Below are positions 1,463-44,302 of a stretch of 44,769 nt of DNA, one piece after another (position 1 is the stretch's first letter; every line of letters begins with the position of its first letter). The position numbers and the translations under genes are program-made. The notes beneath the pieces are model-generated. The model did no database searches. It saw nothing but the letters and a program-made list of their open reading frames with translations, and had not been told where the DNA came from. The stretch spans positions 1-44,769 of the forward strand of contig JBHJMP010000845.1 of NCBI GenBank assembly GCA_043381765.1, in the 5' to 3' direction. Origin of the DNA: Collodictyon triciliatum (lineage: Eukaryota).

Positions 1463-4400
1463 TCAGTCGCGGCCGGCCATCCAATCTTCGATTTCCTGGA
1501 CTGTCCTAGGCACTTGCGTCAAGACTTCCACGCCATCTTCGGTCACAATAACATCCTCCTCAATACGGACACCTCCAAAGGAAAAGAACTTGCGCAAAAG
1601 TTCCTCGTTGAGGTACTGGCTTTGCTTTTCGCATTTGAAAGCCTTTTCAAGTGAGCCTATGCATAAGTTTTGAGCGTCAATCGGAGCCTTTTGCAGCCTT
1701 TTTTTTTTTTTTTTTTTTTTTTTTTTTTTTTTTTTTTTTTTTTTTTTTTTTTTTTTTTTTTTTTTTTTTTTTTCGTTTGCTTGAATTTCATCATAAATGT
1801 AAAAGAACTTTTTCGTCATGTTTGAAGAATGTGTTAGGCGTACTTGGAATGAAATACAGTCCAGGCTCGACAGTCAAGAACATGCCTGTCTGTTTGTAGA
1901 TTTCGAATGGGCTTTACAATTATAACTTTTTGGATCAACAAGAACAAGCAAGTTCGTCTCAAATGAGAAAAAAAAATAAGTGTACCACACATCATCAACA
2001 TACCTGTAAAGTCCTCATGGTTCGAAGAGAACGAAGACCAGGTCGTTCGTGTCTTTGAGGTCCACACGAGGGATATCCTCCGACATCATGGACATCCTAT
2101 CAAGCATCTGAATTGAGTTCTCAACCATTTTCGGACCCTGTCATTACCAAACAAAGGGACACTACAAACCAATCCCAGAAAGTGACCAAGGCCGTGTGGG
2201 AAAAACAAAGCTCCAATGCATGCATCTTGTAGTTCCTTCACAGTCCCGTTGCGAACCAAGCCCAAACGAAGAAGGTGCTCGAGCTAAGATTAATGGTAGG
2301 ATGTTTCAGTGTAATACAGATATGATGCGATAAACAAGTTAAGTTCTTTAAAATAACATACTATGAAGGTATATGCAGTAATGGGCGGAAGGTAAAGGGA
2401 GAACCAACTTCTTTTTCTTTCTATCTCTTTTTTTTTATTATTCAGAATATTCTCCAATAAACGAAAATCGTGTAGCTACTTACGATGACCGATTCTGCAA
2501 GAAGGTGCATATCAGGCCAGGCCACACCGGGCTTCATGGAGGTTCTCACAGCACTGGATAGGTCTTCTTTTTAACAAATTGTATTTCAATATAGATATAT
2601 CATGAAACATCTTGGCTTTTCGGATTATCATGATTGAATTTATTTACATGACAGCGGCAAGGACGGCTTCGTAGATATTCTTTTGGTCCTCAGTAAACTT
2701 TCCGCTTACTAAAGGAGAGATGGGGTCATAAATTCGATATAATAAATTTTTCTCATTTTATCTCTCACTGGTTTGAATATTTTTGGGTAGAAGGGAGCTT
2801 GGGAGGAACAGAAACAAGGATTAAAATAGCAATTAAAGAAAAGTACAAAAACATCGGACAATATGAAAATGAAAATATTTAACAGGAAAGGGAAAGGGAG
2901 TATTCTAACCTGGGTAGCTGCAAGTAATATCAGAGCCGTAGCAATGATATTCCGCACCCATGTCGAGTAAGAGCATGGCGCCTATAAGAGATAAAGACAA
3001 GCTCACAAAATAAATATGGCTTTGGGGAAATCAAGCAAATTAATGATGAGATGATGGCAAAAAATAATAATAATAATAATAATAATAATAAAAGAATTAT
3101 GTCAATATCCTCATCGATACACTCATCGACTCATCAGTTCATTTATATAACACTCATGACATGTAACTACCATCTTCAATAACTCTATCATTCGGTGCAC
3201 CCGCATGACCATAGTGCAACACTGCAGTTTGGTGGCCATTGGGGCAGATGCATGTATAGCTTTTATGTAGAGAAAATGGTGTTTTATAGGATGGCAGGCG
3301 ACATATTAGTACATTTGAAGACTTCATTGTCAAACATACAAAGGAAAATATAGGTAGGATATTGTCAAGAAAGAAAGAAAGAAAGAAAGAAAGAAAGAAA
3401 GAAAGAAAGAAAGAAAGAAAGAAAGAAAGAAAGAAAGAAAGAAAGAAAGAAAGAAAGAAAGAAAAATTTTCCTTTGTTCGATTCAAAGTGCAACGAGGTT
3501 ATATCATACAAAGAAAGAAATACATATCGCAGTATGAATTTTACCTAACATGGCGGCATCCACCGAACGTATAAACATGATGAAGAAACATACTCTCTAG
3601 CTGATATTCCATCATTCCAGCCTAGGGCGGAGTTCCAGATATTACTTACCACTTGTATTCATTATATGTATTATGTTGGACTCGAGAAAATCATGCCGAA
3701 TACCTTGCAGTTGCGCATGACGTACTTATGAGCATCGCTGCTCACTTTGTTGACATATCTCAGGAGGTTCTATGGTGAATTCATACTTGAAAAAGTGTTG
3801 TGAAAAAAAATACTTGGAAATGTATCTAGCCATCCTCTCGAAGCATCTTACTATTTCATCTGGAGATTTAATCACTCTGCATTCTGTGATAATTGGATAC
3901 AGTTTATCTCGCTCAATTTGGAAGTCTCCCATTCCATCAAAGTTTGTTACCGGGCTTATTAGTTATGGATTAAATGTTATTAAGTGACTATATATAGTAT
4001 TGAATGTAAATGTTATGAAGTCGGTTACAAATAAAAAAAAACGACGAGGATAAAAAGGGGATAAAATATTGGAAAAAGGAACGGGGATATAGGGGAAAAT
4101 GCGCAAAAAAGGAAAAATAAAATTAAATAAAAAGTTAATAAATCCTATATAATTATCAAATACATGATAAAGAGGGAGGGGTAACCTTTTACTACCACTA
4201 TCAGAATTTACGCCGCTCATAATGTGGATTTTTTCAATTCCGTTGGACTTTAGATAGGATGCAATTTCATCGACAAAATGGACCTGGTTGATGTTGCTCG
4301 GTTAAGTTGGTTTCTTTCTTGTTTCTTTTATGTATATATATTTAAACCCGAAAATGCTTTTAAAAAGGATTTATTGATAAGGTTGTGGTGTGGGTGTGCT

Positions 4401-5557
4401 TAATTGTGTGTCATGGAGTTTATGAATATATCATGGTCCATAGAGCCTTGGTTATTCTTACTAAAGTTTTTGGGATGATAATTTTTATGAAACCCGCCTT
4501 GTGCTTATTGTCATTACCTCATCTACCAGATAGACGGATTGGAAGTGAGATGGCGGATGAATTTCTCCCATCCAAACTGCGTATGACTCTGGATAACGAG
4601 GAACAAAGAGCACTGACGTTCTTTTCATGAAAATATGGTCAGATGTTATCAAATGAAAATGTTAGAAAACGAGAATACGATTACAAGTGGAAAATAAAGG
4701 AATAAGCTGTGATTTCTTATCTCAGTCGTATACGAATAAGACAATCCTTTCTTTCTTTCTTTTTTCCTTCGTTTTTTATCGAATAAGGTATTACTTGCTA
4801 GCTGGAAGCAAGACACCGTAGCAGTCAGCCTCCTTTACACCAAAAATGTAGTGAAAGTAACTTTCCTATCATTTCACAGTGAATCCATAATAAGCCGTTA
4901 GAATTATTTTTACATACAACTTTAATTAATAGTCTAGGCGCTTCAATATCTTGCGCATGCCAATATTGCAAATGGATGATGGCAATAGAAGTATTTTATT
5001 TTATTTTTATTCTTCACTTCAATTTTGTGCAGGATTGTGAAGATACGATAATAGAAGTATATTTAAATGAGCATCAGTACCAAAGAAGAAAAAGGGGGCA
5101 TACCTGGCGGAACACGATGTCGCAGTCTGTGTCATATCGCTGAAGTTGCGCACCACCCTAAACAAAGGCAACACAATCGAATACATGTTTTTTTTGGTAT
5201 TATTAACTCACAACATGCAAAAAAAAATAGATAGATAGATAGATAGATAGATAGATAGATAGATAGATAGATAGATAGATAGATAGATAGATAGATAGAT
5301 AGATAGATAGATAGATAGATAGATAGATAGAAAAGACAGCACAAGATCTTTCGCAACGAGGCATAAAAGACCGTTTACCATAATAGAAAAAGTTTTTTTT
5401 TTAAAAAAAAAAAAAGAATAACCACCTGCAAGACGATAGCCTCCTGCGGGCTCGGGTTAATCTCAGCATTGAAGGCATCCAGGAAGCGCAGGCGGTTGTC
5501 CTGGTACAGTGAGTACGGCACCTTGTACGTGTTGAGCCCCAGGCTGTAGAACGTCAT
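1463..5557 (-). CDS. PEPD: Xaa-Pro dipeptidase (prolidase, peptidase M24B), about 16 exons
   Basis: Manual splicing with GT-AG introns gives a continuous frame: MTFYSLG..., [125 protein letters not shown]. These are the diagnostic prolidase metal-binding motifs. Confidence 0.96.
1699..1773. repeat. Poly(T) tract in last prolidase intron
   Basis: Directly visible. Confidence 0.95.
3367..3464. repeat. (GAAA)n microsatellite
   Basis: Directly visible, intronic. Confidence 0.95.
3467..3502 (-). mobile_element. Micro-retroinsertion family copy A (prolidase intron)
   Basis: Reverse complement ATAACCTCGTTGCACTTTGAATCGAACAAAGGAAAA closely matches copy F. Any TSD is obscured by the adjacent (GAAA)n array. 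Confidence 0.75.
4995..5049 (-). mobile_element. Unrelated short insertion with (TAAAA)n-like tail and 11-bp direct repeat (prolidase intron)
   Basis: AATAGAAGTAT at 4984-4994 and 5050-5060 flanks a segment whose reverse complement is ATCGTATCTTCACAATCCTGCACAAAATTGAAGTGAAGAATAAAAATAAAATAAA. Confidence 0.5.
5227..5330. repeat. (GATA)n microsatellite
   Basis: Directly visible, prolidase intron 1. Confidence 0.95.
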
Positions 5558-42690: not shown

Positions 42691-43073
42691 NAAAAGAGCA
42701 CCAAAACCTTCTAATTGTCTACTATATGCATTCATAGCAAGTCAGACCATGGGAGCGTCATTCCAAATAGGAATCCGTAGAGATTGATATCTTATGTTAT
42801 ATATGTTACTCTTCTTTGTCTTCCTATACCGAGTTTGCAATGCCTTATGTTCTAAATAATTATTTGATCGAATTTTAATTTATTTCATCCCATGACACAT
42901 CTCATACAAAAATTCAATCATAAAGTATATCTATGTTATGGATTCATATATCGAATGATGCCAGTGTCCTCAAATTTTGCTATAAATCGCATACTTCCGA
43001 ATAAACGTATAATGATTACTATTTAAGTATTATATTTCTCCTATTATTACTCGCACAATTTAATATCCAAATC

Positions 43074-44302
43074 ATGAATGGTAGGAGAACTATAAGGTAT
43101 GATTTGGAGCCAGACCGTTCCGGAAGCAAGAAAAGCGATCTTACAAAACAGATGGAACCAGAGAGTATCGCTGATAGGGTATCTTCTGTTTATTACGCTC
43201 AGAATATCGATAAAAATACCGCCTTAAAAAATTCATCTTTTCACCGAAGAATTTGTCAGAAAAAAACATAATCTTCGCATTATTATTATTATTATTATTA
43301 TTATTATTATTATTATTATTATCATAGTTGTCATCATCAGTTTACCTATTATATTTTCCCCCTTTATTCGATTCAAAGTGCAGCGAGGTTATGGCAGTTT
43401 ACCTATTATATTTAATTTAACTGATTGAGACTATGCCATGACCGATTTTAGACTCCATATATTCCCACTTTGAAACTGAAAGAAAAGCAGGTTTCGAGCA
43501 TAGCAGCGGTTAGTCATATTACCATTTATGATAGTTTCAGAAAGATTCTCACATTTGTTCACATGTGATTTTGTAGCAAAGTATTATGAAATTTGTTTTA
43601 CATAAACGCTGCATAAAATGCCGGTTTATTACATGTAATAATCTTCTTACAACCAAATTTTATCATTCGATAGTCGACATATCGAGAGAATCTGTTCGAG
43701 ATTCTTCGAACATCTGACATTCGGAAATCAGTCGAAGAGCAGATACAGGTTGAATTTTTTTGTTTGTTTATAAATAACCATCATGTTGTAATCAATTTTT
43801 CTTTCTCATATATTTGATCTAATGACACATGCCCATTCTCTTCCTTCCCTCCAGACAATATCTGATCGAATACAATCAGCTCGAGAAATGAGAAAAGGCA
43901 GCAAAGATGTTTATGGGGATTCTCTCCCAAACACTTTAAGAGGGAATTTCAATTTACAAAAAATACAGAGCAGTGAAAAACAAGTAATGAAGCTATTATT
44001 TTCATACGAAGACGCATGATTGTATCCTTCTTTCCATATTTTCTGCGCATATATTTAGCCGCTATAAATATGCATCGGGATTTAATCACCAAAGTTAATG
44101 ACTTACCTAGTTCTTACCATTTTGAAAATAAAAGGTCAAGTTTGAGGTATATTCAGAGCCACTTGTGGTAGAATCGTCAGAATCCAAGTTATTTTTAACC
44201 GAAAGCAAGAGTGCTTATAAAAAATCGAACTCCTACCCTATTGCCGAAGAGAAGAGCTCTACTGAATATGATAGAAAAAAGCACAGCAAATCTAGAAGTA
44301 AG
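43074..44302 (+). CDS. Fragmentary hypothetical S/K/R-rich multi-exon gene (partial)
   Basis: Several short exon-like segments bounded by AG/GT (about 43452-43508, 43673-43748, 43855-43983, 44157-44301). No domain recognised and the start is uncertain. Confidence 0.35.
43357..43394 (-). mobile_element. Micro-retroinsertion family copy F (longest, 38 bp)
   Basis: Reverse complement CCATAACCTCGCTGCACTTTGAATCGAATAAAGGGGGA flanked by a perfect 19-bp direct repeat CAGTTTACCTATTATATTT (43338-43356 and 43395-43413). Confidence 0.9.

Follow-up and report, generated by a model that had tools for sequence, protein, structure and literature searches.

We analyse six very short repeats in a 44,769-nt stretch of DNA from Collodictyon triciliatum (the window), which is contig C845 (JBHJMP010000845.1) of a eukaryotic assembly of 75.4 Mb with 14,576 contigs. 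A preliminary description, made from the letters of the window, proposed that these repeats are retro-insertions of one family: either extreme 5'-truncated ends of a long or short interspersed element (LINE or SINE), or a 'micro-SINE' in its own right. All six copies are indeed found at the positions and on the strands it listed, and their number is far above chance. The window holds 6 matches to the motif with at most two mismatches, versus 0.05 expected, and none of 100 shuffles reaches 6; a looser scan of the window, with a 12-mer and one mismatch, does not find a seventh copy. We hold it as nearly certain that the repeats are dead-on-arrival 3' tips of an L1-like LINE, here called LINE-A, or of its SINE-like passenger. 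The copies, their target-site duplications (TSDs) and the gene that hosts two of them are as follows.

3467..3513, minus strand: LINE-A 3' tip, about 42 nt with two adjacent mismatches, and a GAAAA tail; the part beyond 3502 was assigned by eye against the LINE tip
11602..11659, plus strand: degenerate TSD pair 11602-11620 / 11641-11659, about 19 bp with one indel, from a direct-repeat comparison
11621..11643, plus strand: LINE-A tip of the modal class (17 nt, with one extra 5' C and the last G changed to A) and tail
35808..35868, no strand: perfect 18-bp TSD, 35808-35825 / 35851-35868
35826..35851, minus strand: LINE-A tip of the modal class (16-17 nt) followed by G and A8, antisense in the intron 35741-35948
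36268..36380, no strand: degenerate TSD 36268-36280 / 36368-36380, 12/13 matches
36283..36364, minus strand: 3' piece of about 82 nt from a SINE-like family of about 280 bp, antisense in the intron 36237-36480
41649..41715, no strand: 17-bp TSD with one mismatch, 41649-41665 / 41699-41715
41666..41698, plus strand: LINE-A tip, 27 nt and tail, with a TT|AAAA junction
43338..43413, no strand: perfect 19-bp TSD, 43338-43356 / 43395-43413
43357..43394, minus strand: LINE-A tip, 33 nt and a G4A tail, with a TT|AAA junction (locus L010)
34176..37818, plus strand: host gene, a metallophosphoesterase (Pfam Metallophos) whose introns hold two copies; contigs from runs X1 and X2 show its GT..AG joints

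The supposed single family is therefore divided: five copies are LINE-A tips, whereas the copy at 36283, which had been read as 28 bp of the common consensus, actually reaches about 36364 and belongs to the second, SINE-like family. The copy at 3467 lies where it was placed, but its end at 3502 was too short and extends to about 3513; its 3' flank is a (CTTT)n array, and its flanking repeat is an 11-bp match within this microsatellite, which is not diagnostic. Direct repeats of 16-19 bp had been reported for four copies. Those at 35808/35851 and 43338/43395 are perfect and those at 41649/41699 and 11602/11641 imperfect, while the repeat around the 36283 copy had been missed. Base 35851 is common to the LINE-A tip and the TSD of the 35826 copy. 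The TT|AAA junction seen at two copies holds for those at 41666 and 43357. Several tails or TSDs pass straight into microsatellites (window 3367-3466; L019, L259, L265), which suggests that tip insertions seed simple repeats.

A 31-mer of the motif has 99 exact matches in the genome, and its control has 0. The flanks of 30 excised loci form a nested 5' series of up to about 500 bp, the longest of which enters a CCHC knuckle; the sequence upstream of the motif gave 500 first-look candidates in the genome, of which 40 were scored. Extending the hits, as the preliminary description had suggested, leads to a parent element with an apurinic/apyrimidinic endonuclease (APE) and a reverse transcriptase (RT): contigs C401 and C708 are continuous from an RT match to the motif and its tail, and contig C2558 gives the order of an ORF1-like region (ORF, open reading frame), APE, RT and knuckle. 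LINE-A is thus an element of about 6 kb with these four parts and a short 3' untranslated region, whose terminus is TTTGAATCGAATAAAG, followed by G1-6 and a short A run. Its Pfam matches are RVT_1 (E 3e-26) and zf-RVT (E 2e-7); a match to Exo_endo_phos_2 upstream of RVT_1 on C2558, at 26.1 bits, falls just below the cut-off of 27.4. The best solved relative is human L1 ORF2p (E 3e-21), which ranks above R2.

Several features of the L1 superfamily are found here. An APE lies N-terminal to the RT in ORF2, by the near-cut-off match in LINE-A and a match in its sister, LINE-B; in LINE-A the non-LTR (long terminal repeat) RT is followed by a CCHC zinc knuckle; and the insertions have an A-rich tail, variable TSDs and a TT|AAAA-like target, of which the consensus is weaker than the human one, with positions +2 and +3 mixed. 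On the features tested, LINE-A can be classed as an L1-superfamily LINE, and we leave its clade at that level; the RT comparison for clade involves one distant relative only, at 27% identity. Upstream of the APE, C2558 and C929 have broken reading frames in common, one piece of which is without a Pfam match. The LINE-A copies examined are all broken and differ from one another by about 7-12%. At least five long copies (L063, L064, L067, L071, L088) are without the same stretch of about 700 bp between the RT and the zinc knuckle. The junctions of this gap are A-rich and differ in detail, and, as they are not GT-AG, a GT-AG intron is rejected; either these copies form a subfamily that carries the deletion, or template switching has recurred.

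To characterize the insertions we score TSDs in 93 usable copies (7 of 100 being excluded for N or short flanks), a pair passing at a score of at least 11. The enrichment of TSDs expected across the genome is present: 54 of the 93 copies pass, compared with 0.1% of 1000 shuffled pairs. The passing TSDs have a median of 17 bp, are 15-19 bp long in 42/54 cases and perfect in 32/54, and are alike in short and longer copies (median 17). The insertion site reads T|A in 40/54 and TT|A in 28/54. Tails consist of G0-6 (a single G in 58/93) and mostly 6-10 A, counting the TSD's own A. The modal LINE-A event, in which 16-18 nt are kept, adds about 41-44 bp, and nearly half of this is duplicated host DNA.

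One modal copy lies antisense within the LINE-A RT region on C2558, where it appears as a clean 42-bp gap relative to the other copies, and 17 distinct stretches homologous to this site run through it uninterrupted. Empty paralogues exist for three longer copies as well, which makes four among 229 tip sites searched. A first search for empty sites of the 54 copies with good TSDs, covering excised loci, found none, and the contigs of four sequencing runs contain no joints that remove a copy, a result that is uninformative either way. Of the runs screened, two probable RNA runs had the highest shares, 0.27 and 0.24, and the others had no more than 0.06. Empty sites of the kind the preliminary description had called for thus exist within the genome, as paralogous sites. 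Its proposed origin by target-primed reverse transcription gains support from the parent LINE, the TSD enrichment, these empty sites and the thousands of copies. An adapter or assembly artefact is ruled out by the distinct TSDs, the continuity with ORF2, the empty paralogues and a 300-nt copy in one metagenome contig. The 42-bp antisense insert on C2558 (L061:2127-2183) preserves the RT reading frame, with 14 added codons and no stop; modal 42-bp events could in this way supply short peptides to host proteins.

For the spectrum of kept lengths, position k is counted back from the last G of AATAAAG. The 75-Mb genome contains 2,188 exact 16-mer tips, with 1 for the control; when a GAAAAA tail is included, the exact counts are 2,063 at k7 (control 143), 1,700 at k10 and 1,217 at k16. 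The preliminary description had suggested that the genome could hold very many copies, and the counts run into the thousands; as 3/5 of the window's LINE tips carry the exact seed, we estimate that the total is probably 4,000-5,000 tips. Among the first 100 16-mer matches listed (contigs C1-C253), 14 keep 16 nt, 26 keep 17 nt, 20 keep 18 nt, 11 keep 19-22 nt, 17 keep 25-40 nt and 12 keep more than 40 nt. That is, 60/100 end at 16-18 nt and 88/100 at 40 nt or less, with a median of 18 nt, and the lengths grade continuously into the LINE.

A 16-nt seed hides shorter copies, and we therefore examine shorter-seed matches on the same contigs. There are 26 matches with k10 but not k16; inspection of 24 of them by eye gave 16 copies with an end at 10-15, 5 or 6 with the body of the second family, and 2 longer, mutated copies. 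On these contigs 56 GAAAAA-tailed copies reach k16 or more, which, if about 60% of them fall in the peak, gives about 11 copies per position at 16-18 versus fewer than 3 at 10-15. Between k7 and k10 the count passes from 1,920 (control subtracted) to 1,700, about the ratio expected from point changes, and ends at 7-9 nt would accordingly be rare. The peak at 16-18 is real, because shorter copies are rarer per position and because the sister LINE-B, which is also stunted, does not have it. A minor second stop may exist at position 11, where six of the 16 short copies in the shorter-seed set have their ends.

LINE-B is about 74% alike to LINE-A in the RT, carries Exo_endo_phos (61 bits) and RVT_1 within one frame, and has a different tip, which occurs exactly 993 times (control 4). 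In the first 40 of these copies the median kept length is 29 nt, and 36 are under 50 nt, although some of the values near 28 are underestimates caused by a subfamily variant. Leaving out one copy of the 40 (14 nt), ends at 16-19 occur in 2/39 copies of LINE-B versus 64/100 of LINE-A (p=5e-11). Extreme truncation is thus general to these elements in this genome, whereas the sharp peak belongs to LINE-A. The LINE-B loci (L267-L286, L325-L356) have long TSDs, and a C-rich subfamily variant exists. A third, more distant LINE is present in L093 and L097, and L085 (C929) and L095 (C2464) contain a Ty3/Gypsy LTR retrotransposon with an open frame of 1,500 aa, the terminal repeat of which interrupts one LINE-A copy and one LINE-B copy.

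The second family in the window provides a further comparison. Fifty-three exact tips carry CCTTCCC before the 15 nt common to both families; this variant is not the end of LINE-B, which terminates differently. The element is about 280 bp long and has only its last 15 nt in common with LINE-A. Loci L287 (on C203, about 11,930-12,320), L290, L292, L294, L024 and L042 align over about 255-270 bp at 74-83%. As in a SINE, the element is short and non-coding, has a LINE's 3' end in common and bears TSDs on many tips. Words resembling an A box and a B box lie near its 5' end, as judged by eye; ARAGORN finds no tRNA in six loci, and Rfam gives no match in two. The family is apparently undescribed, and a tRNA-type head is possible. 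A SINE with a LINE's tip is a classical sign of stringent 3' recognition (PMC3472496), and from the tip common to the two families we infer that the last 15 nt are a binding or priming signal. In a sample of the first 30 of 128 exact 17-mer matches, 30/30 copies keep 70 nt or less, and 7/30 end at 17-19 versus 50/86 for LINE-A (p=0.001). Where LINE-A is predicted to form a stem, the SINE-like tip has a pyrimidine tract and no stem, and its peak is weaker.

The insertions therefore combine a LINE-type staggered cut with an end point that is specific to the family. We favour the following mechanism for the LINE-A peak. As it proceeds from the tail, the RT would run into double-stranded RNA at position 17, the 3' foot of a predicted stem-loop, and pause; with the top strand already nicked, the paused RT would jump early to that strand. 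A general tendency to early hand-over would leave all three families short, and the stem foot would add the sharp peak of LINE-A. Early top-strand nicking with premature second-strand synthesis has been proposed for human L1 (PMC7617806). The predicted stem of LINE-A, 38-32/23-17, has an energy of -4.0 kcal/mol and core pair probabilities of 0.63-0.79. Within the terminal 40 nt a single variant is common, at position 20 (G in 35 and A in 19 of 54), and it keeps the pairing with U35. Microhomology at the junctions is not supported as the cause of the peak: the overlap is 0 or 1 in 25/36 junctions, which is not beyond chance.

Measured in element coordinates, the end point also varies less (standard deviation, SD, 1.0) than the length of the whole insert does (SD 2.1; n=37), but the former value is lowered by the 16-nt seed, and this is one of several points that weigh against the mechanism just described. 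The stem is modest: its outer pairs, G38-C17 and U37-A18, reach a probability of only 0.25, shuffled sequences fold as well as the 126-nt tip does (z -0.41), and two-sided covariation is not found in the stem. In the SINE-like sample the fullest bins are still 17-18 (7/30), although some of these copies may be mutated LINE tips. Of the 12 LINE-A copies longer than 40 nt, 4 run off a contig end, so that a fragmented assembly under-represents long copies, and an intact full-length LINE-A is not among the copies examined. Finally, the stem was noticed after the peak, and the match is post hoc. Given this post hoc evidence and a fold that does not differ significantly from shuffles, we consider the whole statement, namely tips of an L1-like LINE or its SINE-like passenger with an RT pause at the stem foot as the cause of the peak, to be only slightly better than an even bet, and for the same reason we keep an RNA cut beforehand as a tentative possibility of some weight.

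According to this alternative, LINE-A RNA is cut or trimmed to about 25 nt and copied to its end, whereupon the RT jumps to the top strand; the short template could come from a protein footprint on the recognition tip or from cleavage by an endonuclease at the foot of the stem, with a small-RNA pathway possibly involved. Blunt junctions without microhomology and with a spread of about 1 nt would follow naturally, as would the scarcity of copies below 10 nt, and the kept piece almost coincides with the presumed binding site, the 15 nt that LINE-A and the SINE-like family have in common. Moreover, two probable RNA runs yield contigs with a summed depth of about 275 at the tip, compared with 3-13 in adjoining bins, although contigs cannot show ends or levels. 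Yet the SINE-like RNA has the same 15 nt and a much weaker peak, and a 5'-to-3' exonuclease should halt at the 5' side of the stem (35-38), whereas only 5/100 copies end at 34-36. A more specific form, in which LINE-A prefers a processed RNA of discrete size, about 25 nt (tip and short tail), cut from its own transcript by a host decay or silencing pathway, is a shade more doubtful again; if it were true, most jumps would become 42-bp scars, and thousands of small-RNA-sized retro-insertions would record that pathway.

Three other accounts fit less well than the RT pause. The geometry of the enzyme could limit the cDNA to about 25 nt, if the hybrid met the top-strand primer or a wall of protein irrespective of sequence. 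All three families are very short and TSD lengths are narrow (15-19 in 42/54), but LINE-B has no peak and total insert length varies more than the element end, and we regard this account as improbable. It would also predict a trade-off between element and tail length, which is not significant (rho -0.16, p=0.32, n=41), although A runs change after insertion and this weakens the test. We think it very unlikely that the modal 17-mer is an independent, self-propagating micro-SINE made of a terminal CTTTG...TAAAG hairpin and a tail, despite its high copy number and the fact that it can be drawn as a 5-pair hairpin. That hairpin is ruled out as a unit by its folding energy (0.0 kcal/mol alone and -0.3 kcal/mol in context, with a pair probability of 0.01). 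The 17-mer shows neither a promoter or 5' head of its own, for which 17 nt leave no room, nor copies begetting copies: the 71 short copies compared have no common 5' flank except in one neighbouring pair that overlaps on its contig, no head lies between TSD and tip, and lengths grade into the LINE. Of the two origins offered by the preliminary description it is thus the truncated ends that find support, every short copy corresponding to the 3' end of either the LINE or the SINE-like element. Equally improbable is that the lengths are set by selection, with long insertions disfavoured in a genome that is compact and rich in introns. The host-gene introns are only 70-244 bp long and long copies are scarce, and selection may add to the general shortness; but it cannot give fewer copies at 7-15 than at 16-18 nt, nor a peak specific to one family, and the share of copies at 19 nt or less is constant across perfect (22/32), mismatched (14/22) and undetected (27/39) TSDs.

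The kind of element and its chemistry are ordinary; the oddity is the near-universal shortness and one family's fixed stop. Like LINE-A, truncated human L1 insertions come from an APE-RT-CCHC protein, use T|A-type targets, have a common 3' end and a ragged 5' end, and have TSDs within 7-20 nt; for both, a premature transfer to the top strand is proposed to cause the truncation (PMC2912911, PMC7617806). Unlike human L1, LINE-A keeps a median of 18 nt with a peak at 16-18, its tails extend about 7 nt beyond the TSD and start with a variable G run, and its TSDs are not short, whereas truncated L1 is enriched for short TSDs (PMC2912911). Stringent-type LINE/SINE pairs with a common 3' end include rare cases in the L1 clade, in maize and Chlamydomonas; as here, the SINE-like element has the LINE's 3' tip and a stem-loop is predicted near the LINE's 3' end, but in the maize pair about 50 nt are common, whereas here there are 15 nt only, the stem-loop is excluded from them, and compensatory changes are not found (PMC3472496). 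The Penelope-like Chlamys elements of Chlamydomonas are likewise active retroelements found mostly as very short 3' pieces in introns, but they are another class of element, with a median of 128 bp, a (C)n target and no fixed stop in the account available to us (PMC9977147). In our literature search, which missed most subscription papers, no LINE with a fixed stop below 20 nt came up, and these Penelope-like elements were the closest case encountered.

The host gene at 34176..37818 has motifs that we take to be like those of purple acid phosphatases. The 35826 and 36283 copies, both with RNA support, lie antisense in their introns, although these are only two cases; a sense copy in an intron would bring AATAAA and an A run. 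Elsewhere in the window, a frame of 1,157 aa at 6103-9576 (minus strand) is GC-rich, has no introns and matches Pfam C2 in seven stretches, whereas its neighbours are intron-rich and AT-rich. A KH-domain gene at 29738-32040 (minus strand) also has a GYF_2 domain, and an exon of a JAB/MPN protease lies at 19937-20320 (plus strand). The stretch 1463-1873 (minus strand) is presumably the end of a peptidase-like gene, judging by its motif; no fitting Pfam match was found for it.

The cause of 5' truncation in LINEs is still argued, and here most of thousands of LINE-A events end at one position, give or take about a base. LINE-B and the SINE-like passenger are built-in controls, in the same genome, for models of pause and transfer versus those of a cut template. 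A survey of primate L1 started at 50 bp, so that 42-bp events would go uncounted (PMC2912911); since events of about 42 bp lie below the floor of at least this one standard survey, such classes may be missed elsewhere. In this genome, at least 2,188 exact tips of LINE-A and 993 of LINE-B are a steady source of intron growth, AATAAA words and microsatellite seeds.

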